Virus record (IMG/VR): IMGVR_UViG_3300022719_000284
Span: 154,827-210,369 of that record
Origin: a virus
Lineage: Duplodnaviria > Heunggongvirae > Uroviricota > Caudoviricetes
Reading direction: 5' to 3' (one strand)
DNA: 55,543 bases
The notes under the pieces: generated by a model
Told to the model about the DNA's origin: nothing
What the model saw: the letters and a program-made list of their open reading frames with translations, nothing else
Databases searched by the model: none
Part shown: piece by piece, positions 11,588 through 51,423 of the stretch
How the letters are laid out: each line of letters starts with the position of its first letter
How positions within the stretch are numbered: the stretch's first letter is position 1
Position numbers and translations under genes: made by a program

Positions 11588-12564
11588 TACTCTTCGTCCT
11601 CATGAAGCCGGGCCCATAAAGCTTCTCTAAATTCACTGCCCTTACCTTTAACTTCTTTATCAAATAAGTCCTCGAATGTTGCAGAAAAAGTTACCTTGCT
11701 AAGTAACTTAATCCTATCATAAGCTTTTTCCAAATCTGCCTTAGTCACAGAAACAGAACTCTGCACACGGGGATTCTGTCGAACCATATCATCTTTGCGA
11801 TTATCCAAAGTAGAGCTTGGAGGAGTTCCAGGGTCTTCAAAATAATCTTCTCCCGGGAATCCAAAATCAGAATCTTCTCTATTCTGATGCTGAAGTTCTC
11901 TAATATAATCCTCAGCTTGCTCTGGAATAGCCGTTCTCATCATTTCCGAAGCACTATGAATAGTCGCCACTCTATGCTCAACTACATTCCAATTAATACT
12001 TCTTTGTAGATGATCTAAATAAGTTCCCTTATCAATGCCATACTGCTGTGTATAAGCATGCTCCCACACATCTATAACCAATAAAGGATACAACCCAATC
12101 ATCAAATTAATGTTATGACCATCAATCATACAGGTAGTAAGTTCGGCTTGAAGAGTATCCCACCCTAAAATAAACCACCCTCGTGCCGATTTACACATAG
12201 GTTTAACTGCATGGCTCCAAAAATCTTTTTGGGCTAAGTTAGGAAAATTTTGCTGTAGTAGTGAAGATAACATTGGCCCCATAAGCATAGGGGCACTATT
12301 AGGTGGAAGTATCACATTCTCAAAAAATAATTCATGTAAAAGAACCGCATTTGTTAAATACATGCGATCTTCTTGCATTCCTCTAAACTCTCCCCCTGAG
12401 GTAGATGCTGATCTCACTAATTCAGGATCATAAGGATTAGAAAGACTTTTCAATGTATCATTAAGGCGTTCTACATAACCCTCATACAAACGAGCATGAT
12501 CTTCAAACATCTTAACTGACAACTCAGGAGCTATATTTCCAAATTGATATTTTTTAGGATGCAT
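11587..12564 (-). CDS. sod: Fe/Mn superoxide dismutase family protein with acidic C-terminal extension
   Basis: HARLYEGYVERLN, LHELFFEN, GWFILGWD and PLLVIDVWEHAY motifs. Confidence 0.85.
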   Translation of the reverse strand: MHPKKYQFGNIAPELSVKMFEDHARLYEGYVERLNDTLKSLSNPYDPELVRSASTSGGEFRGMQEDRMYLTNAVLLHELFFENVILPPNSAPMLMGPMLSSLLQQNFPNLAQKDFWSHAVKPMCKSARGWFILGWDTLQAELTTCMIDGHNINLMIGLYPLLVIDVWEHAYTQQYGIDKGTYLDHLQRSINWNVVEHRVATIHSASEMMRTAIPEQAEDYIRELQHQNREDSDFGFPGEDYFEDPGTPPSSTLDNRKDDMVRQNPRVQSSVSVTKADLEKAYDRIKLLSKVTFSATFEDLFDKEVKGKGSEFREALWARLHEDEE

Positions 12565-15500
12565 TATTATCTACCCCTGTCACTGCTTTGGGAGAGAACG
12601 GAGTCATATCTTGGCGATTAGACATACCTTTCAAAAGAGAGAGCTTACGTTCTTGAGGTATATCCTTAGACATAACTCTAGCTAATATCTGAAATTCCGA
12701 ATGAATTGCTTTTTTAACAACAGGAGAATCTGATGCAGTTCCTATCTTATACAAATGCTCCCCAATAGCCTCTATTGTTCTATTTTCAATTGGCAAATCA
12801 GTGTTAACTCCTAATCTTTTCAGCAAGTAAGCCATTAATTCCGTCTTCATAGCATGCCCATCAACCATGCTACTAATGGTTCTCATAGTTTCTCCGGGAC
12901 TAGTTAATTTAAGCATATTCTGCCTACTTCCAAGGAAATGCTCTAAAATGTCCAAAGCTTCGTTAGACGAAAGAACAACAAAATCATTCTGAGAGTCCCA
13001 AACGGGGATAGATTTTAAACCTTCCCCAGACATGACCTCTTGTTCCATCGCTTGATCGCCTGTAAATTGTTTCCGCCATTCAGCAATTTTCTTTCTATAT
13101 TTAGAATCCTCGTTCAACTCTTCCATAGTTTCTTCTAGGTTCAATCCCGCGGCCGAGGACCATTGCTTAAGAGTTACAGGAACTCCAGCTTCATCAGCAG
13201 TCTTAAGCATATCAAGGAAATTCATGTCCCCTTCTGGCTGGAGCTTCTTATCCCATGCAATCTTGGGTATAAGAAGGTCTTCCTTGGGTATCTTCATTGC
13301 TTTCTTGTAGTCCATTGTAGGTCTTAACGACATGGGACCCTTACGAGCGTCCTTCTTTACAAAGCCGTGAACTCTAGCCAAGGTGGCGAAGATTTTTTCA
13401 TAAAAAACTCGGCGGTCCATGTAGGACCGTAAAGTCCTGAGGGACTCCATAAATACCGACAGGGCGGTCTCCATGTTATTGTAGGTATTCGAAACCATTA
13501 TAGAGTTTCCGACAAACAAATGCTCAGATTTGTCATTGAGAGTTAAGCAATAGGTGTTCTTTTCGCCAACATCCTCAATAGACTCAATAGGTGTGAAGAA
13601 ATATCGGTTATCTGAGAAAATTTTATTATCGTCCGTATTTTCTAGATCTTCGTAACTGACAGCAGCATAGTTGAATTTCTTACGAGTGGACACGTTATAG
13701 TAGCCCTCTACGGCGTATGAGGGCACTCCGAAACCAGACACTTTACCTTCAACTATATTTAAGGCTGCACGCAACTTTTCAAAACCGCGATAAGTATATT
13801 CAGTTTTAGAGACCAATTCGGAAACATCTCTTGAGCCGAGCACAAGCTTATGACAACCTCTTCCGTGAGACTGGATAACCCCAAAAGGAATACCGTTGGA
13901 GGCCAAAAGCGACTTCAATTGAATGAGAAGCTTTTTGCTAGACGAAATAAAAGATATTGACTTCCGAGATAGATTCACATTGCCATCACCTTCTAAAAAG
14001 GCCGCGGCAAAGGCTATTTGGCTCTTAGAATCAGCCTGTAATACGCTCCAAGGGACAACCTTATGATGAGAAGCCGACTTACCTTCCTTGTCTCCGTCTG
14101 TGTAGCATCCAAGCTCATCCAACCATTCAACCAAAGTTTTGCTACAAACTACCGAATCGTAGCACGTATTATATTTCCCAGGAATAGCAGTAGGGTGAAG
14201 CTTTGTACCTAATCCGAATATCTTGTACACAAGATTTTCGTATTGCTGTAGCAATTCAGGATCGCTGTTAGAAAAACGTACTTGACTTGCTTTCTTCAGA
14301 ATTGACCCCTCGCTAACCAATAGACCCAACAAATAAGCCAAATCGGGGGTCATTGTTGAAGGCTTAGTTACAACTTTTCTTTGTCCTCCGTGTATTACAT
14401 TGGATGGATTAGATAGGTTCAACTCAAGAACACCACTCCTAGTGTACGCCTTAGTGGTAGAACTCAAAAGATCTCCTATCTCCAGACTATCTGCGCGCAC
14501 CTGTTCAAACACACCATCTCTAAGGACTAAGAATGGGTGATTGCCTGTGGCTTCAATACTGTTGCCAACGGCGTCGGTAATTCTAAGAACGGGCTTTACT
14601 CCATTATCGAGCCATTTAACGATTTGGGCTTGTTTATTGTGGGAACTAACATTAAGTCCTTTCACATCTTTCCAAGTTCCCCATCTATCCTGCGTTTCGT
14701 TAGTCCCCATTTCTCCGATAGCGGCTATTTCGAGCAAACCTCTGTCAGTCTGAACCAATGTGTCTCCAACCACACAAGCATCGCCACTGTTATGCGTCAG
14801 GATGCCAGAAGCTACGAAGGATCTGTCACAATTTGAATTCATCATGAGGTCGTAAGTGTCTACATAATTCTCTGTATCTTCAACCAGAGACACTTGGTCC
14901 AAGAAATACTCTTCCTCAAGGAGGTCCATGGCTTGACCATAGGTGTTGGGGTCTACACGTCTTAGCATGCTTAGCCACTTATCGTACTCGCCTCTCTTGT
15001 AGGCGTCGTAGTGCATAATCTTAGGAGGCAATGAGGCCACCCAACCCTCAATGAATATATCTCCACCGCCCTCAGTTTTGAATTGAACTCCGCTATTAGT
15101 TATCTTGATTATCTTCTTTTCCGCCTTTGAGACAAACTGCTCCGCGGGCAGTCCATAGCGGTTATGGTTTAGTTCGACACCATCAAACTTAACATACTTG
15201 TCAACCAAATGGGGCTTCAGTTTTTCCATTAGCTTGATAGCAAAGGTTCCATGCACATCTACGGACTTATCTCTACAGTTTGATACTATCCCATGAGTAG
15301 ACAGCATGATATGAAGCTGCTTGCGGATTTTATCGGAATAAGAAATGAAACTAATAGTTCTCTTGGAGAAGTCTACAGTACCGTCCCCTTCCAAGTAGGC
15401 TGCCAAAAAGGATAGCTGTGATTGTGCGTCTGCTTCAAGTATAGACCAAGGAACTTCCTTAAAGTAAGAATTATTCTTACCAAGACCCTCTTCGCTTGCT

Positions 15501-17308
15501 TTGACCCCCAACTCGTACAACACAGCGGACAACTGCTTACTATTGGTGTTAACATCCATGCACACCTTAGTGCTAGTTGTGTCAATACCCGCTATAGTGA
15601 TTTCTCCTTGGGCTTGCTTGCTGTAAACAAACGAGTCCAATCCAAAAACCTTCTTCATTTTACTCACGTAAGAATCAACTAAACTGTTGGATGAGTTGCA
15701 GAAACGTGTACGATAAGTGTCCACACAGCCTTCAGAAACTATACTCCCGAGAAGGAAAGCCAAATCGGGGGTCATTCGTTTCGGGAAAAGAACCTTGTTC
15801 TTGGAAGGGATCTTAGATATATCGTTTCGGGAAATCTTCCTATCGAGAGATAGCGTCTTAGATCTGGTGCATTCATTCACAGGAACGATCACAAAGTCTT
15901 CCTTAGTAACACCGTCTAATTCAGTCCACAATACTTCTCCATCCCGAAGAATTGCAATCTTGTGTTCCTTTGTGGCTTCGAGTTCGTAGCCACTGAATGT
16001 GATCAATTTGGAAACATTCTTCTTTCCGCTATACACCCATGAATCTACAGTGCCGTGACCATATTGAGAGTTGACAGTTATGCTCCTGCCATCATAGGGT
16101 GTATTTGATTGGAAGTTAGGAATTCGTCCCTTATCCAGAAAGTCTTCTATTTTAACAATGCCGCGCTCTACAGTGGGTATGTAGGTATCTCCAGCCAGAC
16201 ACAAGAACGCATCTGAAATACCAAGTGCTCTCATCTTGCCTTCAGTCAAAAAGGCCCATTCATCACTTAATTTCCAAAAATCTGCTCCACCTCTTACTTC
16301 GCTTGTTTCTACACCAGTTCTGGTCGTAACTACAGCCCCTATGGGATCCTCATCCGCTTGTATGAAAAGCCCAGAAATAGCTTCAAGCTCTTCTTCTGTC
16401 GGCTCCCACATATTCTCCAAACCTGCTGTCACATGCAAAATAGACCTAGTGCGTCTCCTAGCATTAGTAACTGTACTCTCTATTAGAGATTTTTCTAAAG
16501 CCCAAAAACTTACGATCCTAGTCAAAAAACTAGTACCGACATAATCATAAGGACTAGAGCGCCTTGGAACAAAAATGGTACTAAGTGGATTTAATTGATA
16601 CGTACCTTGTTTTTCGAATTGAGCAAAGTATTCATCCGGAAGTTGATCCCTAACAGCTACATCTCTTTCATCCATAGAGTGTAGGAAATTCTTCATGGCA
16701 GGAGAAGCTACCAAATCTATTTTAGGATCAAATCCTCTTACCGGTATAGGTTCAATTCTCAGAAAGTCGGGGTCATGATGAGTCCAGTCAACAAAAACAC
16801 CTTTCCGACTATCAAAAATCAAAGAGCTACAAAACTTACCTATAGTCAAAAACTCTTTAACAAGCTCAGGCATCATTGTAACAATGTCTAAACGTTCCAT
16901 AGTATCCTGATACACTCTAAGTATTGCAGGATCATCAATACCTGTTAATCTGCATTCGCTGTAAGGAAGGTTGCTATACAAATCAATTGCAGGGCCTACG
17001 ATAGCATCTCTCAAATATATTAAACGCCACATCTGATGCAGACCGGACGCATCACGGGGCATCCAATCTTCTATAAGGGAACCAATTTCGAGATGGTCAT
17101 GTACAGGATTGTAACGAGAAACGTCATACTGACCGCCAGAAGTCAAATTTCTTCCAGTACCACTTCCTGGGAATCCGAAACCACCTCCCCCTCCAGATCC
17201 GCCTCCAGATCCCCCTACGTTGGAAGTTACAGTCTTACCTAAACTCGCACTAGAATCTCTAGATGAGTGGGCGCTTCGACTTTTTTTACCGTCAAAATTA
17301 AAGTTCAT
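12554..17308 (-). CDS. Portal protein interrupted by two inteins (spliced about 683 aa)
   Basis: Lies between terminase and protease; two HINT/LAGLIDADG insertions; extein reads GISDAFL-SGDA-TYNNMETAL. Confidence 0.8.
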   Translation of the reverse strand: MNFNFDGKKSRSAHSSRDSSASLGKTVTSNVGGSGGGSGGGGGFGFPGSGTGRNLTSGGQYDVSRYNPVHDHLEIGSLIEDWMPRDASGLHQMWRLIYLRDAIVGPAIDLYSNLPYSECRLTGIDDPAILRVYQDTMERLDIVTMMPELVKEFLTIGKFCSSLIFDSRKGVFVDWTHHDPDFLRIEPIPVRGFDPKIDLVASPAMKNFLHSMDERDVAVRDQLPDEYFAQFEKQGTYQLNPLSTIFVPRRSSPYDYVGTSFLTRIVSFWALEKSLIESTVTNARRRTRSILHVTAGLENMWEPTEEELEAISGLFIQADEDPIGAVVTTRTGVETSEVRGGADFWKLSDEWAFLTEGKMRALGISDAFLCLAGDTYIPTVERGIVKIEDFLDKGRIPNFQSNTPYDGRSITVNSQYGHGTVDSWVYSGKKNVSKLITFSGYELEATKEHKIAILRDGEVLWTELDGVTKEDFVIVPVNECTRSKTLSLDRKISRNDISKIPSKNKVLFPKRMTPDLAFLLGSIVSEGCVDTYRTRFCNSSNSLVDSYVSKMKKVFGLDSFVYSKQAQGEITIAGIDTTSTKVCMDVNTNSKQLSAVLYELGVKASEEGLGKNNSYFKEVPWSILEADAQSQLSFLAAYLEGDGTVDFSKRTISFISYSDKIRKQLHIMLSTHGIVSNCRDKSVDVHGTFAIKLMEKLKPHLVDKYVKFDGVELNHNRYGLPAEQFVSKAEKKIIKITNSGVQFKTEGGGDIFIEGWVASLPPKIMHYDAYKRGEYDKWLSMLRRVDPNTYGQAMDLLEEEYFLDQVSLVEDTENYVDTYDLMMNSNCDRSFVASGILTHNSGDACVVGDTLVQTDRGLLEIAAIGEMGTNETQDRWGTWKDVKGLNVSSHNKQAQIVKWLDNGVKPVLRITDAVGNSIEATGNHPFLVLRDGVFEQVRADSLEIGDLLSSTTKAYTRSGVLELNLSNPSNVIHGGQRKVVTKPSTMTPDLAYLLGLLVSEGSILKKASQVRFSNSDPELLQQYENLVYKIFGLGTKLHPTAIPGKYNTCYDSVVCSKTLVEWLDELGCYTDGDKEGKSASHHKVVPWSVLQADSKSQIAFAAAFLEGDGNVNLSRKSISFISSSKKLLIQLKSLLASNGIPFGVIQSHGRGCHKLVLGSRDVSELVSKTEYTYRGFEKLRAALNIVEGKVSGFGVPSYAVEGYYNVSTRKKFNYAAVSYEDLENTDDNKIFSDNRYFFTPIESIEDVGEKNTYCLTLNDKSEHLFVGNSIMVSNTYNNMETALSVFMESLRTLRSYMDRRVFYEKIFATLARVHGFVKKDARKGPMSLRPTMDYKKAMKIPKEDLLIPKIAWDKKLQPEGDMNFLDMLKTADEAGVPVTLKQWSSAAGLNLEETMEELNEDSKYRKKIAEWRKQFTGDQAMEQEVMSGEGLKSIPVWDSQNDFVVLSSNEALDILEHFLGSRQNMLKLTSPGETMRTISSMVDGHAMKTELMAYLLKRLGVNTDLPIENRTIEAIGEHLYKIGTASDSPVVKKAIHSEFQILARVMSKDIPQERKLSLLKGMSNRQDMTPFSPKAVTGVDNNAS
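13487..14776 (-). mobile_element. Intein 2 of portal (430 aa, LAGLIDADG)
   Basis: Starts CVVGDT, ends IMVSN/T; LAYLLGLLVSEG and FAAAFLEGDG motifs. Confidence 0.9.
14789..16201 (-). mobile_element. Intein 1 of portal (471 aa, LAGLIDADG)
   Basis: Starts CLAGDT, ends ILTHN/S; LAFLLGSIVSEG and FLAAYLEGDG motifs. Confidence 0.9.
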
Positions 17309-17627: not shown

Positions 17628-20600
17628 TTAGTGCCTATTTCTATAATTTCTTTTAGTTGCTAATTTGGCCCCAGAAGTAGTCTTTTTAGGATCTACCATG
17701 CCTGAACCTGCGCTCTTAGATAACATAACCCCAATATTCCCTCCGGCCCCTCCAGCAGCGTCCACAGCGTACACTCGTTTGTATTGGGGCTGAACTATGT
17801 GATACATACCTAGACACAAAGCTCTAAACATGTCATCATCCCCACTTACTGGTTTTGTGACCCTTCTACCTACTTGCCGTACAGTTAACATTTGAAGTAT
17901 CAATGTTAGTATAGGTTTTCCTGCAACAAATTCTAGAGGATTTTCGTAAGTCAACCTAAGCTCTTCTGGTGTACGTTCTGGTTTTGGCAAAATCAGCTCT
18001 CCAGAAGCCAAACGGGCTGCAATTTCAATAAAATCCTGAAATTTCATGGAATATTGTTCAGATAAAACCTTATGCTGTCTTAATTTTTGTACCAAATCCG
18101 TACTGTTCCACGTGTCAGAAAACATATGCTTGATAAGAAGATTTTGAACTATAGGCTGAAAACAATACTCCCACATTAAATGAAAATTAATAGGAATGCC
18201 TTCCTCCGGGGTAACATCAAAAACGGCGTCAACTCGCGGGCGATCTCTTTTTGAGTCCCATGTCATTAACATTACAGCAAAATGGTTTCTCTTTTCCCCT
18301 GCGTCTACTAACAGCATTCTTGGTTTTCTTTTATCAACGAGAGGGACATTAACTGAAGCATATTTTGTTTTATTACCAAAGTCATCCACATGGTACTGTG
18401 TTTTAATTCGCAACAAATTATGCTTATGGTTTGGATCTATCATAAGATCTACACAATTGGGATTATCAATAAAAGGATCATTTGCCAATGGAGGGACTGC
18501 ACCAAAGTCTCTCTCGGCAACCATTTTACTTTTATTGAATTCCGGTTGAAGACTCTCTCTAGAGATGTTTGGGTTAGCTTCCCAGGTAGGGTAATGATAA
18601 GCATAAATCTTGGGATTATCCCTGGATTCTCTGACTGAGCGCATAATCCTATCGTCTTTTGCGGAAGGGCTGGAAATATTACAGGCGTAAGCATCTATAG
18701 TATTGTACAGCCCCTGTAGTCTCTTTTTTTCCGCCATACTTCGAACGGTTCTTAGAGAGTTATCTAGAGCTGCCGAAATCTCGTCAGCAGATAAGGTGAC
18801 AGATTGCTTAGCAGCATCCGCTTCCATCCACCCCACCTCGTCGATGGCAGTGTTGTTATTTAACAAGCAATTTGCATAAAAACGATGTGAAGGCTCGACA
18901 GTAAAATCGTATACATCAATGTTACCAACATTCTCCTTAGAAACAATTTTTGAAAAACACAACTCATCGTTTCTAGCCCTGTTAAGTGTAGAGTACAGAT
19001 CCTCATCAACTATTTTCAAGTTATTCATAAACACTGTGGACAAACGTCTCGGATTAACCAATTTAAGTTCTCTACCTTGTATGTTTCCACAATCTCGCAT
19101 CAACGTATGAGACTCAACAAGAGACCCAATTGGTAATGAGACCTCTCTACCGTCTAAAGTTTTCCACACACTACGATGATTATTGATGTTACTTGTACTT
19201 AAATGAGTAACATCAATAGGCATCATTTCATGGGAAGAACGAGAATCATCAGCAACAGAGGATTCAAAGCTATGTTTTCTTTCCAAACCAAAACCTACTA
19301 TATCAAAAAACCTTTTTCTGTCGCTACCATACATCGATACTTTATAATAGTTTCTACCCCGCCTCTCGTATCTCTTAATATGTGACAATATTCCCAAATT
19401 AAAAAGCAAGAGTCTTATTCCCTCTGCCAATTTTGGGGCACTAATATAATAACTAACTTGAGTATCGGTTGCCATTCCATCGCCGTCAAAAAAACCACGA
19501 AGAAACAATACCACTAAGTCTTTGGGAGCTTTTCGTATGGGCCAAGGTACATCCTTAATGGTACAGCCTTCATATTCGTAACCAAGATAATGGATAAACT
19601 GGCCCACAAAAGCACTTTGATTATCCATATTCCAGGCTTTTCCTGAGGATTTTGACTTTCGAGGCTCAAGTCCAAAGCAAGATAAAAATAGTTTTCTATA
19701 TCTTTCTAGACAGTAGGGATCACCGGATGTAAAACGAATCCTATAAGCTGTAGATTTTTTGCCCTTCCTACACGTTTTTACAAGTGAACCCCCCGCCCAG
19801 AGAAATCCCATCAGCTCTGCGAGTTCTGGTGTTAGGGCATCCGGAACCACGGAATGCATTCTTTTATCCATAACAGAAAGCTGTTTATCAGAACGCTTTC
19901 CACCAAATCTATCTCTTTTATAATCAAAATCAAAAGAAGGCGGTGTGGACGGAAACACATCGAATTTCGGAGTCTGGAGAACAAAGTAATCTTGCTCCGG
20001 TATAATATCTCCCAGTTTCTTCATCTGATATCCGTTTATTGGGTTATACACATAAACAGGATGCACAGAAGTACCTGTGATTTGAGTTCCGTCCTTACTC
20101 TCAATTCTGATCCCTGGAACGTTTTTGTATTGGAACATGTGAGTGGCATCTTCAAACTTAGATAGGGCAGCAACTTTCAAATTGTCAACTTTATCAACTC
20201 TATCAGAATTTGATAAGACAGGAATAAACAAGTTAGCTATATCAAATGTTCCAAAATTTGTCGTAACCTGGGTGTCTCCAGCAACACAAAATATTCGAGT
20301 CTTACCACGAAGGCGTCTTTTATTAGGAGCTTCATACATGCAAGCAATACGTTTATGTTTGTACACTAGAAAGGTTCTTGGTCGGTGAAGCAACTCAGTT
20401 CCTAGCTTCTCCCCAGTATCAGAGAGAAGTTGATGATATTCCTTAAACCAAGGGGCTTCATCAACATACTCTTTAAAAGGGGTCCAAAGAGATGCCTCTG
20501 CCTGACCGGCAGAAATTGCTGTCATACTCATGTAAAGTTGAGACGAAGAGAGTAATCCAAGGTAATTTATCGGATCCGGAATAACTAAATATCTGTGCAG

Positions 20601-23600
20601 AACATAAGCAGCTATCATAGCTACCAGAGCCGATTTACCGCTATTGCTGGAAGTTATTCCGTTAGACCAGAAAGAATGGTCCCCTGGAACAGTAAAGTCA
20701 TAAGTTCTAGAAATGGGACCTTCTTCTATATTACTGACCATAACAAAATAGTCGGAAGAACTAGCAGACACTAGGAAAGAATTTATACGTTCACAAAGTT
20801 CCTTAGAAAGAAATCTGTGCCATTCTTCTGTGAACGGGGTCAAAATATCAAACACTTTCTTTTTAGATAGCGCAACATTATCTGCTTTCCGCATTCGATT
20901 ATAAACATCTGTCTTCTTAACACCCAATACAGATTGTATACCTAATTTTCTAGACTTCTTATTAAAAGGGTGTGGTTGGGAATTCAAATGATCCTTCAAA
21001 TCTTTCATTAGATGAAGAAATTTTTCTTTGTCCGCCACAGAATATTTTTGATACCAAAAGGGCATGTTTAATTTACGAGAGTCAAGACCCGCTATTGCCT
21101 TTTGTACTCTTTTCTCTTTGTACTCTAAACCAAAAGATATGATTTCATGGAACAATGCCATGGCAGGCCCTTCCACAACAACAGTGTAACATCTAACAGG
21201 GTTCTGCGTAGCGGAACCATTAGTAGCTTTTGACATCTTAGAACATATCTTACTTGGAATACCTAAGTTTTGCAGCATAAGAGCAACATGCTGACAAAGC
21301 TTTTCGGAAATCGATGTATATTCGATAGATCGATTACTTACGTACCCATCACCATCATATAGTCCAGATAAAAAAGCACACACATAATCCTTAGGTGCTT
21401 TTCGTATACATTTTGGTATTTCTTTATTTACGCTTTGACTGAATGCCCCAGAACCTAACAATTTCTCTGCAAACAAAGATGCTTTTTGGGTTCTAATACC
21501 CACACTTTTATTTGTTCGATTACACTCCCCAAACCATCTAACAAGTATACTCTCACAAAAATCTAAAACATTTTCATCTAGGTTGGATACTCTTAACCCA
21601 TTTCCTATGGTTCCTTCTGACACTAAATAACCTAAAAAGCGTGCGTCATCAAGAGACATGAATCCTGTTGGAATTCTATGATCTTTTACATTATGTTTGG
21701 CGTTCCTGGGTACTGTATCTAGCCATCTTGAAAAATCTTCATTTATATCATAATAAAAATTATTATAGTTTACAACAGTAGTACCAAAAATATTCTGCCC
21801 ACATGAGACAGGTAAAACACTTCCAATAGATAGATCACGTATTTTAACAAAACCTTTGTCTGTTAACAAAGGGTGATCCGAAGTACCTGTAATACTTAAT
21901 CCGTTAGAAAACCGCACAACATAGGTTTTTTCAGGCTGACTAACAAAAAAACGAGTGGCTTCTCCAACATTCTTCCCTGTGTGCAGTTTCTTAGAAAAAT
22001 GACTAAAACCTTCTGGTAAAGATCTTGCAAAATCGCCAATTTCCACGAGGCCATCAGATGTTAATACATTGGTATCTGCTGTTACACACCGCTGGCCAGC
22101 ACAATTGTGTACCACAATCCCATTACACACAAATTTGTGCTCATTTACCACTTCTATATCGTATACGCGCTCAACGCCAGACTTCTCAATAGAAGATACT
22201 GTATCAAACAGTAAACCAGAAGATAGCAAAGAAAACAGCTTATCGTATAAATCTTCTGATACTTTCCTAAGTTCTTGTAAAACAGGTTTTCCTCTAAAGT
22301 AAAGCTCTCTTCCATCAAAATTGCTGTAGTATATGTTATTACCGTATACAGAGTTATTAGAACCCACCAAGGACACTAATCCCTTAACGGTTACTTCTGT
22401 TCCATAGTCCGTTAGAAATGAAGACCCTCTACATGAGTACCCAGTTCTTCTAAAGATTAATTTCTTTTGCAGAAGATACCTGGGTATGCCGTAGCCGTTA
22501 TCTGCCACATGTTTTTTGGGATAATACTCATTTAACTTACTCACCAAAAACGTATGGATTAAATTGTATAGTTTGTATTTAAAGTTTCCACTAACGTCTA
22601 ATCGATTGTGTTTCCCTGCATCAAAAAATCTATTTGATACAATACCTAGCTGAAGAAACAAGATTTGCATATCTTTGAGGAGAGTATTAGAGCTGCTCCA
22701 AACGGTTATTCTATTATCCCTAATAGACCCATCACCTTCTAAATACCCAGCCACAAAAGCACACTGGGAATCGAAGTCGGATTCCCATATACACGCAGGT
22801 ATATGCGTATCTTTAGAATTTTGACTAATACCAAGCTCTTCAAACCATTTTAGAACTTGTTTGATACTTATTTGAACATGATAATAATCTTTTGTTGAAT
22901 ATGTTTTTACTTCTTCTCCAAAAGCAGATTTAAATGTTCTGGCAGACCCAACGCGGTCCCTTACAGAAACACAGGTATTTAAGCCAAACAAGCTGTTTAA
23001 ATTATCACTGACTTTAGTTAGAAACGACTTATCTGTTCCGTAAATAGCCCCATAATTTCCTTTAGAGGATCCGTCAGAAAGGAGAGCACCTATAACAAAA
23101 GCAAGCTCTGGGGTCATATACTTAGGTGCTTTTATATTAAGTTTTGTTCTACTATTCACTGAAAAACGAAGATCTAAACTATTCCTGTTCTTTACTGCTA
23201 CAGGCATCGGACTAATAGCTACTTGATCGTTCTCATTTAATTTTGAAAGTTCCTTCCACCCTAAGGTCAAATCATCCTGCAATACCTGTACACGATGATC
23301 GGCAGTGCCTTTCACAGTGTAACCCCGAGAAGTTGTTAATGTAAAGACCTCTTTTTTGCCTTGATCCCACCAATTAACTATTTCTGATGTTCCTGATCCA
23401 GTGTTAACAAAATCTCCTACCTTATGCTGCATGTCCTTAAGTCTAAATATTCCAGTACCAGTTTGAACTAAAGCATCACCAGTTATGCAGCCAGCTAGTT
23501 CGTATGGGTTATGAAATATGCCCTCCTTAACAAAATCGTTTCGATTTTTATTGCACTTGGGGCACTTACCGAATTCCAAAAGTTTAATATTATCTAAAAT

Positions 23601-23879
23601 CTCTGAAGTTGGTTGATCAAAAAGATCTAACTCCTTACTATCTCCTTTAAGCCAATCAGGGTTGCTGCAATGGGGACAGTAATCCTCAAAAAAAGACAAA
23701 CCAGCTTCCATCTGTCTTGGGTATGGAAGAACATTGAGAAATTTTTTGCTTAAACAAAAATCCAAAAAATTTGGAGCTTTTAGAATATCTGCCTCATTAA
23801 GTACAGAAAAAACCCCAGGGTCAAGATTAGACTTGAGAGCTTGTTGAACTAGACTCGATGGGCTCCATTCCTCAGCCAT
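17628..23879 (-). CDS. terL: Terminase large subunit with three inteins (spliced about 660 aa)
   Basis: After removing inteins: Walker A CAGQRSGKS, Walker B RIFTAIDE, and RNase H-like nuclease motifs (LLVDAG, DDDMF). Confidence 0.9.
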   Translation of the reverse strand: MAEEWSPSSLVQQALKSNLDPGVFSVLNEADILKAPNFLDFCLSKKFLNVLPYPRQMEAGLSFFEDYCPHCSNPDWLKGDSKELDLFDQPTSEILDNIKLLEFGKCPKCNKNRNDFVKEGIFHNPYELAGCITGDALVQTGTGIFRLKDMQHKVGDFVNTGSGTSEIVNWWDQGKKEVFTLTTSRGYTVKGTADHRVQVLQDDLTLGWKELSKLNENDQVAISPMPVAVKNRNSLDLRFSVNSRTKLNIKAPKYMTPELAFVIGALLSDGSSKGNYGAIYGTDKSFLTKVSDNLNSLFGLNTCVSVRDRVGSARTFKSAFGEEVKTYSTKDYYHVQISIKQVLKWFEELGISQNSKDTHIPACIWESDFDSQCAFVAGYLEGDGSIRDNRITVWSSSNTLLKDMQILFLQLGIVSNRFFDAGKHNRLDVSGNFKYKLYNLIHTFLVSKLNEYYPKKHVADNGYGIPRYLLQKKLIFRRTGYSCRGSSFLTDYGTEVTVKGLVSLVGSNNSVYGNNIYYSNFDGRELYFRGKPVLQELRKVSEDLYDKLFSLLSSGLLFDTVSSIEKSGVERVYDIEVVNEHKFVCNGIVVHNCAGQRCVTADTNVLTSDGLVEIGDFARSLPEGFSHFSKKLHTGKNVGEATRFFVSQPEKTYVVRFSNGLSITGTSDHPLLTDKGFVKIRDLSIGSVLPVSCGQNIFGTTVVNYNNFYYDINEDFSRWLDTVPRNAKHNVKDHRIPTGFMSLDDARFLGYLVSEGTIGNGLRVSNLDENVLDFCESILVRWFGECNRTNKSVGIRTQKASLFAEKLLGSGAFSQSVNKEIPKCIRKAPKDYVCAFLSGLYDGDGYVSNRSIEYTSISEKLCQHVALMLQNLGIPSKICSKMSKATNGSATQNPVRCYTVVVEGPAMALFHEIISFGLEYKEKRVQKAIAGLDSRKLNMPFWYQKYSVADKEKFLHLMKDLKDHLNSQPHPFNKKSRKLGIQSVLGVKKTDVYNRMRKADNVALSKKKVFDILTPFTEEWHRFLSKELCERINSFLVSASSSDYFVMVSNIEEGPISRTYDFTVPGDHSFWSNGITSSNSGKSALVAMIAAYVLHRYLVIPDPINYLGLLSSSQLYMSMTAISAGQAEASLWTPFKEYVDEAPWFKEYHQLLSDTGEKLGTELLHRPRTFLVYKHKRIACMYEAPNKRRLRGKTRIFCVAGDTQVTTNFGTFDIANLFIPVLSNSDRVDKVDNLKVAALSKFEDATHMFQYKNVPGIRIESKDGTQITGTSVHPVYVYNPINGYQMKKLGDIIPEQDYFVLQTPKFDVFPSTPPSFDFDYKRDRFGGKRSDKQLSVMDKRMHSVVPDALTPELAELMGFLWAGGSLVKTCRKGKKSTAYRIRFTSGDPYCLERYRKLFLSCFGLEPRKSKSSGKAWNMDNQSAFVGQFIHYLGYEYEGCTIKDVPWPIRKAPKDLVVLFLRGFFDGDGMATDTQVSYYISAPKLAEGIRLLLFNLGILSHIKRYERRGRNYYKVSMYGSDRKRFFDIVGFGLERKHSFESSVADDSRSSHEMMPIDVTHLSTSNINNHRSVWKTLDGREVSLPIGSLVESHTLMRDCGNIQGRELKLVNPRRLSTVFMNNLKIVDEDLYSTLNRARNDELCFSKIVSKENVGNIDVYDFTVEPSHRFYANCLLNNNTAIDEVGWMEADAAKQSVTLSADEISAALDNSLRTVRSMAEKKRLQGLYNTIDAYACNISSPSAKDDRIMRSVRESRDNPKIYAYHYPTWEANPNISRESLQPEFNKSKMVAERDFGAVPPLANDPFIDNPNCVDLMIDPNHKHNLLRIKTQYHVDDFGNKTKYASVNVPLVDKRKPRMLLVDAGEKRNHFAVMLMTWDSKRDRPRVDAVFDVTPEEGIPINFHLMWEYCFQPIVQNLLIKHMFSDTWNSTDLVQKLRQHKVLSEQYSMKFQDFIEIAARLASGELILPKPERTPEELRLTYENPLEFVAGKPILTLILQMLTVRQVGRRVTKPVSGDDDMFRALCLGMYHIVQPQYKRVYAVDAAGGAGGNIGVMLSKSAGSGMVDPKKTTSGAKLATKRNYRNRH
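18852..20288 (-). mobile_element. Intein 3 of terminase (479 aa), at Walker B
   Basis: CVAGDT...LLNNN/T; FLRGFFDGDG motif. Confidence 0.9.
20643..22088 (-). mobile_element. Intein 2 of terminase (482 aa), inside Walker A
   Basis: CVTADT...ITSSN/S; FLSGLYDGDG motif. Confidence 0.9.
22104..23489 (-). mobile_element. Intein 1 of terminase (462 aa)
   Basis: CITGDA...IVVHN/C; FVAGYLEGDG motif. Confidence 0.9.
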
Positions 23880-41647: not shown

Positions 41648-43882
41648 TCAGCCTTTGATACACAAGATCTGCTTCAGTGTGTGCTTGATATCCACCAAAG
41701 ACGCCTGCGCTGCCATAACAGCGTCGATATCCTTGTAAGCTCTCGGAGTCTCGTCAATGACGCCTTCATCCTTGCGACACTCGACGCCGGACGTAGCCTC
41801 GATATGGTCATCCAAAGTGAACGTCTTCTTAGCTTTCGAACGGCTCATAACACGACCAGCGCCGTGGCTACACGAATGAAAGCTCTCCGGGTTACCCTTA
41901 CCTTCAACAATGAAGGACTTAGCGCCCATTGAGCCTGGAATAATTGACATTACCCCCTTTCGGGCACACACTGCCCCCTTTCTAGTGAGCCACACATTTT
42001 CTCCATAGTGAGACTCTTTACGAGTAAAATTATGATGTACATTAACTGCTATATCATGCGTCATGAGCTTTTTATGTGGAACTCCGCCTTCCCTATTCAA
42101 GGCTTCGAATACGTTCTCCACCATTAGGTTACGGTTATAGAATGCAAAATTTCCAGCCCATTCCATAGCCTCAATGTAATCATTGAAATATTCCGTTCCT
42201 TCTGGGAAGTAAGCCAAATCCTTATCTGGAAGATTGATAAAATACTTTCTCATATCCTCCTTCGCAAGCTCAGTGAAATATCTTCCAATAGAGTTACCGG
42301 GGCCACGGCTACCCGAATGAAGCATTAACCATACACGATCCGTCTCGTCCAAGCAAATCTCAATAAAATGATTTCCACTACCCAGTGTGCCAAGCTGGGA
42401 AGCTGCCTTCTTATGTAAAATGAGTGGATGCTTACTATGAATAGTAGCATAGCTCTTTTCTAGCTTGTTCTTCCACAGACGAGCATTGTTCTTCGGAACA
42501 TCATCCTGAGCATACCCTCCCTTATCGTGGGAAGCCCCCTTGACTGCACCTACAGGAATCGCCTTTTCTATGGCGTTACGCCATGGTTTTAGACTCGTAG
42601 GCAGATCGTGAGAAACTAACCCTGTTCTAACAGCAACCATACCGCACGATAAATCTACACCAACAGCAGCAGGAATAATGGCTCCCTTGGTTGGGATAAC
42701 CGACCCAACAGTAGCACCGCGACCATAATGACAATTACCTGTAACAAAGGGGACACCATCCCGGCGAGCCAGGAAGAATGTAGTAGGGCACGATAAACAC
42801 ACCACCGTTCCAGTGTAGGGTACTGTATTTCTCTTAACTTTTCGTGCGTGAAGGCCCGAGCGACAATGAACGAATCTATCAGATGCTATCAGCCCAGTAT
42901 AATGAGATTCCACTTTCCCAGTGAAACCTTCAACGACCCGGGACGTGGTGCTGCTACCAAAACCGTATACAGCAGCTATTGCCGAAAAGAACCCTACTTC
43001 CTCCTTTACAGAGGAATTAAATCGCATACTGCCATTCTTTAGGAAAATTTCGTAATCCCCGTTCACCTGAACAGATTCCAATAAAAAAGCTTCGGCCTTC
43101 TTTTTTCCCATACCCAATAGGTACCAAGGATAAGTCTTAGACTCACCCACTATATCCAAATATTTAGAACTGCTTTTGGTATTAATGTAAATCTCTGTTT
43201 GCTTGAAGGATACAAATTCACTATATTCAAGATCTAATCTTGAAAGTAGTTCCTTCAACCTAAGAATTTTTCTTTCCTTCTTGAAACCAAATCTAATCCT
43301 ACGATTAGTGCTTTTAGCGTTGTGCGTTGTTTTTATGTTTCCATCGCCTACAATCCAAGCCAACAAACAAATTTCATCTACACTGAGATCTTGTGAAGGT
43401 CCCCACTCTTCTTTAATTCCGACACAAAACCACATGTAATCCATCAACATGGAAGTTTCTGGTAGGTTTTTAGCCAAATCTCCAGGATTATTCATCCACC
43501 CCATACGATGATTTTCAGTTACAATTATTTCTCGCTTCTGGGAAGAAGAAAATCCATATTCAAAAGAATAAACCTTCTCACCAGGGCGAAGGTGTCGTTC
43601 TACAACGCCTGATACCGGCAAGAACTCCATTTCTTTCGTGAGAGGATAGACATTTGCAACAAGATCTCCAACCCTCAAATCCGAAATTAAACGCCATCCA
43701 GAAGGTGTCAAAGCTTCTGTATCGGAGGACAAGCAATCTGGCATCACGGCAATATGCTTGTGAATAAACGGTAAAGAAGCAACGTTCTTTAGCTGAGTCA
43801 AAGCCTCTGACTCAACCTGAACGCCCTTTGTCCACGCCTTGATAGGGACACTCGATCCCTGATATACGTTGTAATCACTCAT
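41648..43882 (-). CDS. rtcB: RtcB RNA ligase with one intein (spliced about 410 aa)
   Basis: MPD|CHYGRG, VGVDLSCG, LGTLGSGNHFIE, HSGSRG, HHNF, IPGSMG and SCSHGAGR motifs. Confidence 0.95.
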   Translation of the reverse strand: MSDYNVYQGSSVPIKAWTKGVQVESEALTQLKNVASLPFIHKHIAVMPDCLSSDTEALTPSGWRLISDLRVGDLVANVYPLTKEMEFLPVSGVVERHLRPGEKVYSFEYGFSSSQKREIIVTENHRMGWMNNPGDLAKNLPETSMLMDYMWFCVGIKEEWGPSQDLSVDEICLLAWIVGDGNIKTTHNAKSTNRRIRFGFKKERKILRLKELLSRLDLEYSEFVSFKQTEIYINTKSSSKYLDIVGESKTYPWYLLGMGKKKAEAFLLESVQVNGDYEIFLKNGSMRFNSSVKEEVGFFSAIAAVYGFGSSTTSRVVEGFTGKVESHYTGLIASDRFVHCRSGLHARKVKRNTVPYTGTVVCLSCPTTFFLARRDGVPFVTGNCHYGRGATVGSVIPTKGAIIPAAVGVDLSCGMVAVRTGLVSHDLPTSLKPWRNAIEKAIPVGAVKGASHDKGGYAQDDVPKNNARLWKNKLEKSYATIHSKHPLILHKKAASQLGTLGSGNHFIEICLDETDRVWLMLHSGSRGPGNSIGRYFTELAKEDMRKYFINLPDKDLAYFPEGTEYFNDYIEAMEWAGNFAFYNRNLMVENVFEALNREGGVPHKKLMTHDIAVNVHHNFTRKESHYGENVWLTRKGAVCARKGVMSIIPGSMGAKSFIVEGKGNPESFHSCSHGAGRVMSRSKAKKTFTLDDHIEATSGVECRKDEGVIDETPRAYKDIDAVMAAQASLVDIKHTLKQILCIKG
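42734..43735 (-). mobile_element. Intein in RtcB (334 aa, LAGLIDADG-like)
   Basis: CLSSDT...FVTGN/C; LLAWIVGDG motif. Confidence 0.9.
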
Positions 43883-48991: not shown

Positions 48992-49018
48992 CTATCGGCT
49001 AAAATGCCTCAATCTTTA
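48992..49018 (-). promoter_or_regulatory. sigma28-type promoter internal to the tRNA array
   Basis: TAAAGATT-N11-GCCGATAG, close to the FliA consensus. Confidence 0.7.
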
Positions 49019-49025
49019 GCCTAAA

Positions 49026-49102
49026 TGGAAGCCGGAACGAGAGTCGAACTCGTAATCGCCTGATTCAGAGTCAGGTGCATTACCCAATTATGCTATCCGG
49101 CT
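49026..49102 (-). tRNA. tRNA-Gln(CUG) copy A
   Basis: CCUGA-CUCUGAA-UCAGG; A1-U72; U73. Confidence 0.92.
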
Positions 49103-49228
49103 ATTATGTCATGCGCCGCCCGGCCCCCGCCAAGTCAATTCTCCTGCCCCTTGCCAGTATCTCCCTGGCTACGCCCGTTCAGGATAACGCGATAAGTTAT
49201 ATGCCTTCCTTCGTACGTCTGTATAAGC

Positions 49229-49390
49229 CTACTCCAGTAATTCTGCATAAACCCCAACAGGGTAATAGCAAAAAGTAATCTTACTAGGATCGTCGCATCC
49301 CAATCGATGCATAACTTCTTTCATAGATTCTCCACCTAGAATCAATTCTCTTTTCACTAAGAAAACAGGATCTTTATATTTTTCTTCCAT
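49229..49390 (-). CDS. 53-aa hypothetical protein (MEEKYKDPVF...), below ORF-track cutoff
   Basis: ATG at 49390 to TAG, translated by hand. Confidence 0.45.
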   Translation of the reverse strand: MEEKYKDPVFLVKRELILGGESMKEVMHRLGCDDPSKITFCYYPVGVYAELLE

Positions 49391-49473
49391 AATACACCAC
49401 TACCCAGTTATGCTTCCTTTGTGTTGTACGGGTTTTCAACCCGTGCCAACATGTTCTACCTCTCCTAAATTTG

Positions 49474-49800
49474 CAGACGAGCTATAAGCGGGATTCTATT
49501 ATCGACAATCATTCATCTTGCTCTGGTGTTACCACCAGAATCTTTGCCCGATACCCGAGGACTCCTGGCACAATCAATGCCCTCTGCTTTCGGTTGCTGC
49601 ACCTGCGCTGTCGCCCGTTTCACCCTTAATACACTAGGCCGCTGTTTCTGCCGCTGTTTAATCCCAGGCTCCAGGGAACCTAGTGTATCAAGATTCGTCT
49701 CTGTTGCCGTCACTCACCTCACGGTGGGAGGGTGTTACCCTCCAGGCTGTGCCATGCAGTCCCGACTTTCTTCTCCTTAGAGCGATTGTCCGCTCGTCTG
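49474..49800 (-). ncRNA. rnpB: RNase P RNA (bacterial type A-like)
   Basis: P1 CAGACGAGC/GCUCGUCUG; CR-I GAAGAAAGUCGGGA; CR-V AUAGAAUCCCGCUUA forming P4; GUGA-capped hairpin; GGUGAAACGG; GUAA-capped P18. Confidence 0.9.
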
Positions 49801-49808
49801 TAATCAAA

Positions 49809-49878
49809 GGGGCCAGGGAGCGCATGCCGCCCTGCGGATTAAAAGTCCGCTGCATTCAGCAGATTTTGCTACCTGCCC
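49809..49878 (-). pseudogene. Degenerate tRNA-Lys(UUU) with non-canonical T arm and no CCA
   Basis: Intact D arm and GCGGA-CUUUUAA-UCCGC, but T-loop replaced by GCAUG. Confidence 0.7.
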
Positions 49879-49883
49879 ATATA

Positions 49884-49960
49884 TGGTCCGGGTGGAGGGA
49901 TTCGAACCCCCGACATCATGCTCCCAAAGCATGCGCGCTACCAAACTGCGCTACACCCGG
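49884..49960 (-). tRNA. tRNA-Pro(UGG) #3
   Basis: CAUGC-UUUGGGA-GCAUG; C1-G72, A73-CCA. Confidence 0.93.
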
Positions 49961-49966
49961 ATATGT

Positions 49967-50042
49967 TGGTGAACCCCCAGGGAATCGAACCCTGAACCTA
50001 CTGGTTAAGAGCCAGTTGCTCTACCTATTGAGCTAGAGGTCC
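49967..50042 (-). tRNA. tRNA-Lys(CUU) copy B
   Basis: ACUGG-CUCUUAA-CCAGU. Confidence 0.93.
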
Positions 50043-50048
50043 AAAATA

Positions 50049-50125
50049 TGGAAGCCGGATCGGGGTTCGAACCCGAAATCGCCTGATTCAGAGTCAGGTG
50101 CATTATCCAGTTATGCTATCCGGCT
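50049..50125 (-). tRNA. tRNA-Gln(CUG) copy B
   Basis: Same anticodon arm as copy A. Confidence 0.92.
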
Positions 50126-50252
50126 ATATGTCTTGCGCCGCACGACCCCCTGACACCCTTTAACGCGGGTCCACAAACTTTAGCCTACTTTATCGCCTGT
50201 CGCGATGCTCAGCCCCATAGCCTGCGCTCATGGCTTCGTTTGTCTTAAATTG

Positions 50253-50336
50253 TGGCTCCCCAGGCTGGACTCGAACCAGCATTGCCCGAAGGCACGACTT
50301 AACAGGCCGCTGCATTGCCAATTATGCTACCGGGGA
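50253..50336 (-). tRNA. tRNA-Asn(GUU) with long UUCG-capped variable arm
   Basis: U1-A72, G73, GCGGC-CUGUUAA-GUCGU, extra arm GCC-UUCG-GGC. Confidence 0.88.
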
Positions 50337-50747
50337 ACAGTATTCGTACTCCTTCGCCCATCTCATTCTCTTCGAAGATGGGCATTTAGGCTCTTCTACT
50401 CGCAGAGTGATTTGTCTTTTTGGTGCCTCGTCTACAGGTACTACGTACACTTTATCCGTATCCGGGCACCAAACTGCAAACCAATCTGCACTACCTGTGT
50501 AATCCTTCGATCCGTTTCCTCTATGGGCATACGAGCTACATGTAGCAGCTTCGACTACTCCGTTTCTAAGTCTGCCAGTCTTGCATTGCACTCGAATGAA
50601 ATCTTCACCGCGATGGAGAACCATATCGTACCTCTGGTTATCCCCGAAAGGAAGTAGCACTGTTTCTCCTCCACGCACAAAAGCGGCTAAGCACATTGCT
50701 TCAGTTAACTCACCGGCACCCTTAGGGTTTTGCTTTTTATCATCCAT
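50322..50747 (-). CDS. Group I intron-type PD-(D/E)XK homing endonuclease (I-Ssp6803I-like), free-standing; start likely MDDKK at 50747
   Basis: KG..GE..E...........V..PFGDNQRYD.V.......R.QCKTG...Y....D.FAV.CP motif. Confidence 0.85.
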   Translation of the reverse strand: MDDKKQNPKGAGELTEAMCLAAFVRGGETVLLPFGDNQRYDMVLHRGEDFIRVQCKTGRLRNGVVEAATCSSYAHRGNGSKDYTGSADWFAVWCPDTDKVYVVPVDEAPKRQITLRVEEPKCPSSKRMRWAKEYEYCSPVA

Positions 50748-50771
50748 GCGGTTTCTTTTACCATAAAACGC

Positions 50772-50802
50772 AAAAACCCCGGTTTCCTTTTGGAGACCGG
50801 GG
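50772..50802 (-). terminator. Intrinsic terminator of the attenuator (3:4 helix)
   Basis: CCCCGGUCUCC-AAAA-GGAAACCGGGG-UUUUU. Confidence 0.9.
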
Positions 50803-50830
50803 CGCAAAATGTTGCTCTGTCAGTCAGAGC

Positions 50831-50917
50831 TTACAGCGCACCAGCCTCCTGCCCAGGATTACTGGGCTGGTTCGGCTTTGATTGCCATGAGGATGGTTTG
50901 CGGTTGAAAGTCATCAT
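50831..50917 (-). CDS. 28-aa leader peptide MMTFNRKPSSWQSKPNQPSNPGQEAGAL
   Basis: Translated by hand; ends 25 nt before the antiterminator partner strand. Confidence 0.8.
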   Translation of the reverse strand: MMTFNRKPSSWQSKPNQPSNPGQEAGAL

Positions 50918-50950
50918 TGTATCCAATATATAAGCACCAAAAAGTTTGAC

Positions 50951-50978
50951 GCTGGAGGGATTCGAACCCATATCCAGC
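50951..50978 (-). other. T-loop-capped hairpin (tRNA 3'-end relic) in the 5' leader
   Basis: GCUGGA-UAU-GGG-UUCGAAU-CCC-UCCAGC. Confidence 0.6.
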
Positions 50979-51031
50979 CGAAACCGAATATACCCTAGCC
51001 ACCGTTGGTTTTGTATCTAACATCCTTTAGA

Positions 51032-51059
51032 CTATCGACCAATACCGAGTGAAACTTTA
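51032..51059 (-). promoter_or_regulatory. sigma28-type promoter upstream of the attenuator
   Basis: TAAAGTTT-N12-GTCGATAG. Confidence 0.6.
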
Positions 51060-51423
51060 GCTTCTTCGTCTTTTAAAGGATAGATCAATGCCGCTAAGCC
51101 GTCAACCTTCCTCTTCTTCATACCCCGGGGAATGCTCCAAAGCTAGATCCCTAATATCTAGTAAAACTTCTAAGATCAAATCCAAAGTTAAATTTGAATT
51201 TTCCGACTTAGAGTTATCCTCTTTGATTTCAAATCTACGACGCATTCCAAAACTCACAGGTTATTTTCCCAACAAATGATTATACAACCAATAATAAAAA
51301 CCAATAAAGTAACATAAAATGGAGTATCAAAATAGTTTAATAAAAAACCGGAAACCACCCCTACTGAGATAATCCATCCTCCCTTTCTACTTTCTCTTTC
51401 TGTTTGGTGTTTATTAGTTTTTA

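Follow-up and report, generated by a model that had tools for sequence, protein, structure and literature searches.

A putative multivalent leader-peptide attenuator ahead of a tRNA gene array in a large tailed phage

Leader-peptide attenuation is a textbook mechanism of transcription control, known for amino-acid biosynthesis genes and a few synthetase genes. Multivalent leaders occur in enterobacteria, with Ile, Leu and Val codons in the leader of ilvGMEDA and Thr and Ile codons in that of thr. Here, we describe a putative counterpart in an uncultured giant tailed phage (Caudoviricetes). The stretch of DNA that was analysed, referred to as the window, comprises 55,543 nucleotides (nt) of the IMG/VR record IMGVR_UViG_3300022719_000284 (positions 154,827 to 210,369) and forms the last 55.5 kb of a 210-kb phage contig with a completeness estimate of 77%. 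On the minus strand of the window, between 50917 and 50772, a short open reading frame (ORF) and a terminator precede an array of tRNA genes. Judged from its sequence, this element is probably a multivalent ribosome-mediated (leader-peptide) transcription attenuator that heads a phage tRNA operon. No paper describing leader-peptide attenuation for tRNA genes was found in a full-text literature search.

The element shares with the ilvGMEDA and thr leaders a short leader ORF in which codons for several amino acids would set the ribosome position, translation being predicted here, a region 2 with two predicted partners, one lying upstream and the other being the terminator's 5' arm, a stop codon sited such that a finishing ribosome would mask region 2, and a predicted intrinsic terminator just ahead of the controlled genes. 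It differs from them in that the genes downstream encode tRNAs, RNase P RNA and a homing endonuclease instead of biosynthetic enzymes, and in that five amino acids are sampled by scattered and not by repeated codons. The phage unit would moreover yield the decoder itself, so that the loop closes on tRNA supply and not on amino-acid supply, and it resides in a phage genome and has no sequence or covariance-model match to any Rfam leader family. What makes the element new is that its presumed target genes fall outside the known range of the class (biosynthesis and synthetase genes). A predicted four-region geometry (1:2, 2:3, 3:4), in which 1:2 is the least certain pairing, and a presumed dependence on coupled transcription and translation are further shared with trpL (RF00513) and the his, leu and phe leaders. 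These leaders sense one amino acid via tandem identical codons, whereas the phage leader does not; unlike in trp-type leaders, its no-ribosome state does not always favour the terminator, and it is not a member of that group by sequence.

A resemblance also extends to the pheST and other aminoacyl-tRNA synthetase attenuators and to T-box riboswitches (RF00230), in which decoding components are regulated by tRNA charging, as may be the case here. The pheST attenuator, however, controls a synthetase while the phage element precedes tRNA genes, and T-boxes, for which no ORF is needed, act by direct binding of uncharged tRNA; the phage element has no T-box match. A cmscan search of positions 50100-51400 with E-values up to 10 returned only tRNA-Asn, a T-loop fragment and a chance match to a small nucleolar RNA, and no covariance-model match was obtained for RF00513 Trp_leader, RF00514 His_leader, RF00506 Thr_leader, RF00512 Leu_leader or the T-box. 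A known RNA family was rejected as an identity for the element, with no match at E-values up to 10.

An initial annotation of this stretch, made from the letters alone, had reported a 28-codon ORF with its peptide, and both are present in the sequence as given. The parts of the element, all on the minus strand, are as follows.

50918-50946, minus strand: conserved A/U-rich 5' leader with a Shine-Dalgarno (SD)-like GGA/AAGG box 5-8 nt before the ATG
50831-50917, minus strand: leader ORF from the ATG at 50917 to the TAA at 50833-50831, 28 codons plus TAA
50889-50902, minus strand: region 1' (codons 6-10), 5' strand of the predicted anti-antiterminator, pairing with region 2
50851-50867, minus strand: invariant hairpin inside the ORF with a 6-bp stem and the loop UAAUC, 100% paired
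50836-50849, minus strand: region 2, the last five sense codons, with region 1' or region 3 as alternative partners
50814-50830, minus strand: hairpin P2, between the stop codon and the terminator and within the antiterminator loop, 90.9% paired
50792-50805, minus strand: region 3, forming the terminator's 5' arm and also taking part in the antiterminator
50772-50802, minus strand: predicted intrinsic terminator with a 10-bp G+C-rich stem, AAAA loop and T5

Homologous copies of the element were collected in two ways. Two relatives, L005/G002 and L007/G001, were reached via neighbouring proteins: L005/G002 encodes a neighbouring 170-aa protein that is 55% identical to that of the window and an RtcB that is 77% identical, and the RtcB of L007/G001 is 78% identical. 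The 21-nt invariant core of the element was then used as a search pattern and retrieved nine metagenome contigs (L088-L096). Besides the window there are 10 further distinct leader copies, giving 11 distinct sequences of which 8 are complete and 3 partial. Over viral contigs, 32-mer and 25-mer patterns yielded nothing new and the 21-mer only the two relatives already known, while a 20-mer from hairpin P2 yielded nothing new over metagenome contigs. When 80 RtcB-bearing viral loci were compared by blastn, the element was found only in the two close relatives.

All 8 complete copies retain the frame together with the positions of the ATG and the stop codon, with ORF lengths of 25-28 codons, and the reading frame is also kept in the 3 partial copies. 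Indels within the ORF are of -3 and -6 nt, and those past the stop codon are of 1, 2 and 4 nt. Frame as well as content in Asn, Lys, Pro, Ser and Gln (N/K/P/S/Q) are preserved in each complete copy, where the initial annotation would have counted the loss of both as evidence against its proposal. The complete copies start with ATGATG or ATGACAATG, each with an SD-like box upstream, and the 27 nt ending with the ATGATG start are invariant across the window, L005 and L007. Of 145 upstream regions examined, 46 contain AGGA-type motifs, where 10 would be expected. In L089 the start signal is CTAAAGG-N6-ATG, a box that also lies 7-10 nt before many long ORFs of the phage.

The hexamer CTAAAG itself occurs 199 times in the whole genome (about 103 expected), often within (C)CTAAAGG followed after 7-10 nt by the ATG that opens a long ORF (G000 9147, 22372, 42011, 52620 and 106740), and may be a phage-specific ribosome-binding or promoter box.

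The codons of the leader correspond to the tRNAs encoded downstream. In agreement with the initial annotation, 16 of the 19 residues at positions 5-23 are N/K/P/S/Q, and the codons used include all four for Pro, both for Lys, Gln and Asn, and TCC, TCA and AGT for Ser. The tRNAs from 50336 to 47039 are likewise as described, all 14 that ARAGORN calls being specific for Asn, Gln, Lys, Pro or Ser. The 26 residues that follow the two start codons in the window include 16 N/K/P/S/Q, compared to a mean of 10.0 in dinucleotide shuffles (P = 0.0012). The 8 copies hold 15-17 such residues among 23-26, against roughly 9-10 in shuffles (P <= 0.0012 in all), and relative to the phage proteome baseline of 0.27 the binomial P ranges from 1e-4 to 4e-4. 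This enrichment is specific to the frame, since the other two frames hold just 6-10 such residues. Replacements between the copies fall mostly within the tRNA set (N/S, P/Q, R to S). Wherever a copy reaches far enough to show it, the tRNA block downstream is of the N/P/K/Q/S type, now and then including a His or Phe. With a leader spelled mostly in the amino acids of the array, the phage probably makes the tRNAs of the block only when those codons are decoded slowly.

The predicted terminator hairpin at 50802-50777 consists of 10 base pairs (bp) with one C-A mismatch, followed by T5 at 50776-50772; this agrees with the claim that region 3 can alternatively form a terminator with a run of five U. 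A simple consensus scan for promoters and terminators did not list it because of the internal mismatch, and promoter counts in that scan were at chance level. Among the 11 aligned sequences, 96.6% of the terminator cells are paired with two compensatory double changes, and hairpin P2 likewise contains two pairs with compensatory double changes. The pairing of region 2 with region 3 was recovered as proposed, at 13 of 14 positions including two G-U. For this antiterminator, 98.6% of 143 cells (13 pairs in 11 sequences) are paired, compared to 36-57% with the partner slid, and in L096 one C-G pair is replaced by U-A through a double change that leaves the residue encoded by the ORF unaltered. 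Region 3 takes part in both structures, and the two pairings are mutually exclusive.

The upstream partner of region 2 is one part of the initial annotation that required revision. It had been placed at ACCAGCC (50871-50865), which indeed pairs with region 2 at 7 of 7 positions in the window, but at only 5 of 7 in L005 and 6 of 7 in L007. This segment overlaps the invariant hairpin at 50867-50851, and the partner that recurs is instead formed by codons 6-10 (50902-50889). The minimum-energy fold is a three-way junction plus two hairpins, in which the closing pairing joins codons 6-10 with region 2 in all 8 copies. The invariance of the hairpin at 50851-50867 is partly due to ascertainment, as that stretch served as the metagenome search pattern.

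The effect of ribosome position on folding was simulated by masking about 30 nt around the ribosome at each codon in turn in the 8 copies. With the A site at codons of about 3-16, the antiterminator is favoured and the terminator probability is mostly 0.0-0.3, whereas from about codon 20 to the stop it is mostly 0.9-0.99, reaching 0.97-0.99 with the ribosome on the stop codon. Averaged over codons 9, 12 and 15, the terminator probability of the native sequence is 0.31, 0.00 and 0.15 in three copies; when the leader was shuffled and the terminator left untouched the mean rose to 0.95-0.97, and only 0-1 of 120 shuffles were as low as native. With no ribosome placed on the RNA, the copies differ widely in terminator probability (0.11 to 0.98). 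The proposed trp/his/thr-type attenuator geometry is supported by these analyses, every prediction that could be checked at the level of sequence having held, the exception being region 1, which lies elsewhere than proposed and whose pairing varies among the copies.

A search of the relatives for leaders that co-vary with their tRNA blocks, as the initial annotation had suggested, found a second leader-plus-terminator unit whose peptide mirrors another block. The tRNA sets of G001 and G002 are near-complete and fall into two blocks, the upstream one comprising Met/Ala/Gly/Glu/Ile/Thr/Arg/Val and the other N/P/K/Q/S. The second unit lies before the former and has the layout of the first, with a similar 5' box.

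L097 4716-4859 (G001): ORF of the second unit, 47 codons, with a terminator at 4886-4909 plus T6
L098 15159-15040, minus strand (G002): ORF of the second unit, 39 codons (unit 14974-15221), with a 12-bp terminator and tRNA-Met within a few bases

The second peptide draws 34 of 47 residues in G001 and 32 of 39 in G002 from the set of its own block (72-82%), and just 8 and 3 residues, respectively, from N/K/P/S/Q. When leaders and tRNA sets were compared within one phage, Fisher's test gave P = 4e-4 and 3e-6. The units of G001 and G002 differ by a coordinated deletion that removes one base pair from region 2, region 3 and the 3' arm of the terminator. In the masking simulation the G001 unit switches. 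The leader-2 box was found only in G001 and G002 in a scan of viral contigs, and the contig of the window ends short of the position expected for its own second leader.

Several observations weigh against an attenuator. The variable columns of the ORF are distributed over the three codon positions as 8/13/11, with no excess of third-position change, and hence no selection on the peptide as such is visible. This would fit a leader peptide but equally a non-coding RNA, and is not proof of translation. The 3' half of the ORF is invariant with synonymous sites included, which indicates that the constraint there is on RNA and not on coding. The tandem identical codons of trpL, hisL and pheL are missing, and sensing would have to operate via scattered codons for five amino acids; a composition rich in S/P/Q/N/K is also typical of disordered small proteins. 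Since all copies of the first leader are homologous, the codon match represents one evolutionary observation, plus one from the second leader. The anti-antiterminator (region 1' with region 2) is the weakest part of the switch, with just 76.5% of cells paired in fixed columns because the register differs between subgroups. The equilibrium fold without a ribosome favours the antiterminator in L007 (0.11) and L095 (0.19) and is undecided in L090 and L096, so that the classical branch in which no translation gives termination is not general. The second unit of G002 never switches at equilibrium, its terminator being too strong (probability 1.00 throughout). Finally, a promoter-like box at 49018 within the array could feed all four Ser tRNAs and half of the array independently.

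Some of these observations would suit a conserved structured non-coding RNA, either a small RNA or an element for processing or stability of a tRNA precursor, that carries its own terminator; the open frame would then arise incidentally from the A/C-rich 5' arm of a long helix, with no role for translation. The block at 50947-50764 is 95.7% identical in L005 and 80.7% in L007, similar to the RNase P RNA (95.5% and about 90%), whereas the tRNAs are 72-92% and the RtcB gene 69-73% identical at the DNA level in these two relatives. Conservation of the leader block therefore tracks the RNase P RNA and exceeds that of RtcB DNA, a constraint like that on a functional RNA. The 171-nt stretch with its three-way junction and two hairpins folds better than 200 of 200 shuffles (z = -4.17), frames free of stops arise in 31-67% of shuffles, and the invariant synonymous sites and the lack of excess third-position change point in the same direction. 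We nevertheless consider such an RNA unlikely. Both indels within the frame are multiples of three and those after the stop are not, the ATG and its SD-like box are kept, the N/K/P/S/Q bias is confined to one frame, and an unrelated second ORF with a complementary bias stands before the other tRNA block. No Rfam match was found for it, and tRNA-Asn begins 20 nt past the U tract, so that an array transcribed from this promoter needs read-through of the terminator. A variant in which a stand-alone small RNA gene has its own promoter in the conserved TATATATT box was set aside as a minor rival, as the box does not recur in the genome and the frame is kept.

Conservation of frame, start and SD-like box could also indicate a small-protein gene with an ordinary, partly leaky terminator, the peptide of 25-28 residues being functional itself and the codon match coincidental. 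The C-terminal half of the peptide (QPSNPGQE.G.L) is near-invariant among the copies, in keeping with such a gene, yet the invariance reaches synonymous sites and coincides with RNA helices. The N-terminal half varies freely but stays inside the tRNA set, and neither the conserved alternative pairing with the terminator arm nor a second unit with a different peptide and the same logic would be explained. We thus regard a functional peptide as very unlikely, and return to the attenuator as the preferred reading of the element. The surrounding features are listed below.

51033-51059, minus strand: sigma-28/FliA-like promoter box (TAAAG, spacer, GTCGATA), a regular-expression match with a predicted promoter function
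50947-51039, minus strand: degenerate tRNA-like remnant with the T-loop GGGTTCGAATCCC, between the promoter box and the leader, detected by ARAGORN at a relaxed threshold only
50322-50747, minus strand: PD-(D/E)XK homing endonuclease gene (Pfam PF11645, E 8.7e-35), between the terminator and tRNA-Asn
49026-50336, minus strand: proximal block, presumed to be controlled, with tRNA-Asn, Gln(CUG), Lys(CUU), Pro(UGG), a Lys(UUU)-like tRNA, RNase P RNA (49801-49469) and Gln(CUG)
48993-49018, minus strand: internal sigma-28-like promoter box preceding the distal half (Lys, Lys, Ser, Gln, Ser x3, Pro x2; 48958-47039)

The tRNA array lies downstream of the leader as the initial annotation had stated, but the gene that follows immediately is that of the PD-(D/E)XK homing endonuclease and not a tRNA. 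It begins 25 nt past the U tract and overlaps by 15 nt with tRNA-Asn, which lies 436 nt downstream. In L007, an Endonuclease VII gene occupies the same gap (L007:1455-1865; PF02945, E 1e-24), while L005, L088, L089, L090 and L095 have no endonuclease and tRNA-Asn follows about 20 nt after the U tract. The endonuclease-free copies and the different families at one spot indicate that these genes are secondary insertions at a hot spot, outside the unit. The hairpin might be a plain operon-boundary terminator next to a chance ORF, or might insulate an inserted endonuclease gene from upstream transcription; such a gene does stand at this spot in the window and in L007, and a terminator reportedly precedes the homing endonuclease gene mobE of phage Aeh1. 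This, too, we regard as very unlikely, considering that the five copies named above carry the full element with no endonuclease, the leader part is as strongly conserved as the terminator, the switch is absent from shuffled leaders, and the endonucleases, being of different families, are secondary.

The short distance between the U tract and tRNA-Asn in the endonuclease-free copies leaves no room for a promoter, and a sigma-70-type promoter between terminator and tRNA-Asn was rejected on this basis; transcription of the array from an upstream promoter consequently requires read-through of the terminator. We also rejected a tRNA gene split by a group I intron carrying the PD-(D/E)XK endonuclease, as tRNA-Asn is complete, no intron match was obtained and relatives lack the endonuclease. 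Another PD-(D/E)XK gene is located between tRNA-Met and tRNA-Ala in G001 (L097:5159-5548).

The likely start of the transcript is marked by a box of the form T[AC]AAG-N14-17-[GTA]CCGA[TA], which was found upstream of every homologue of the first leader that reaches far enough and also upstream of the second leader in both relatives, while shuffling predicts about 0.44 matches per window strand. The unit is laid out as promoter box, optional tRNA-like RNA, leader, terminator and tRNAs. A sigma-70-family protein is encoded elsewhere in the phage genome (PF04542, 46 bits, 404-aa frame; G000:C1:24916-25116, outside the window), and the phage hence probably relies on an RNA polymerase of the bacterial type, which would respond to intrinsic terminators. 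This protein may read the sigma-28-like boxes of the tRNA region.

A similar internal box occurs at the equivalent place in L005 (11498). The proposal that the leader controls the array is not supported for the array as a whole, since the internal box at 49018-48993 would also serve the distal half. By itself, the attenuator would be limited to gating the endonuclease gene, the tRNAs for Asn, Gln, Lys and Pro, RNase P RNA and the next Gln.

The structure of the unit, its conservation and the codon statistics are established from the sequence; from them we infer translation of the ORF, termination and read-through upon stalling, in the following course of events. Transcription would start at the sigma-28-like promoter, which the sigma factor encoded by the phage itself may recognise, and the transcript would carry the 28-codon ORF in which codons 5-23 are almost all for Asn, Lys, Pro, Ser or Gln. 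A ribosome that reaches the stop codon would cover region 2, the terminator would form and the polymerase would halt at about 50772. If no ribosome is loaded, region 2 would pair with codons 6-10 and the terminator would form again, although in some copies only. When charged tRNAs are short, the ribosome would linger in codons of about 3-16 and the free region 2 would pair with the 5' arm of the terminator, allowing read-through into the endonuclease gene, tRNA-Asn, Gln, Lys, Pro, RNase P RNA and the remaining N/K/P/S/Q array. The new tRNAs would then relieve the stall and close a negative feedback loop. Such a shortage might result from the codon demand that phage genes impose, from host tRNAs decaying or from anticodon nucleases of the host. 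The last of these as the trigger is speculation, and a general shortage of charged tRNA in the infected cell would explain the design equally well.

If this is correct, phage tRNA arrays are not constitutive but regulated by the very shortage that they correct, which would explain the partition of the arrays by amino acid and bear on the role of phage tRNAs, whether in matching codon usage, replacing decaying host tRNAs or evading anticodon nucleases. The units are short, self-contained and portable, and would offer small natural devices that sense how fast defined sets of codons are decoded. By extension, and here we lean only slightly towards acceptance, large phages may keep their tRNA genes in amino-acid blocks together with RNase P RNA or transfer-messenger RNA (tmRNA), each behind its own multi-amino-acid attenuator, whose leader is spelled in the codons read by that block, and induced blockwise by slow decoding, as a decoder feedback that would respond automatically to host defences that cleave tRNA.

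The right end of the window consists of translation-related genes on the minus strand. Their order is tRNA-Ala, tmRNA and tRNA-Met, then small proteins, the leader unit, the Asn/Gln/Lys/Pro tRNAs and RNase P RNA, after which the array continues as Gln, Lys, Lys, Ser, Gln, Ser, Ser, Ser, Pro and Pro. An extra weak Rfam tRNA match at 49878-49810 has a Lys(UUU)-type anticodon loop and scores only 33 bits. At the place of the degenerate remnant upstream of the leader, L089 (412-516), L094 and L095 carry an intact-looking five-armed tRNA-like RNA of about 105 nt, which is absent in L005, L007 and L090. Its acceptor stem has 7 bp and its 'anticodon' stem, with the loop UUCGACU, 6 bp; a canonical T arm and an extra hairpin are also present. 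This RNA was recognised neither by ARAGORN nor by the Rfam tRNA model. An RtcB RNA ligase gene lies 7 kb further along (41651-43882, minus strand; PF01139, E 1.5e-119) and fits a tRNA-repair setting.

The RtcB protein has an N-terminal extension of about 380 residues without a Pfam match, and its full length is common to the two close relatives at 77-78% identity. Among the tRNAs, the tRNA-Asn(GUU) of the window (50253-50336) and its homologues are unusual for Asn in having a long variable arm (83-88 nt in most relatives), and the relatives also possess tRNA-Lys genes of 87-92 nt, mostly with the anticodon UUU. Elsewhere in the window, the minus strand holds a gene at 613-2247 whose protein contains collagen triple-helix repeats and a weak match to the BclA C-terminal domain, and two very long ORFs at 12557-17308 and 17631-23879 (1584 and 2083 aa) that each contain intein splicing and LAGLIDADG endonuclease domains.

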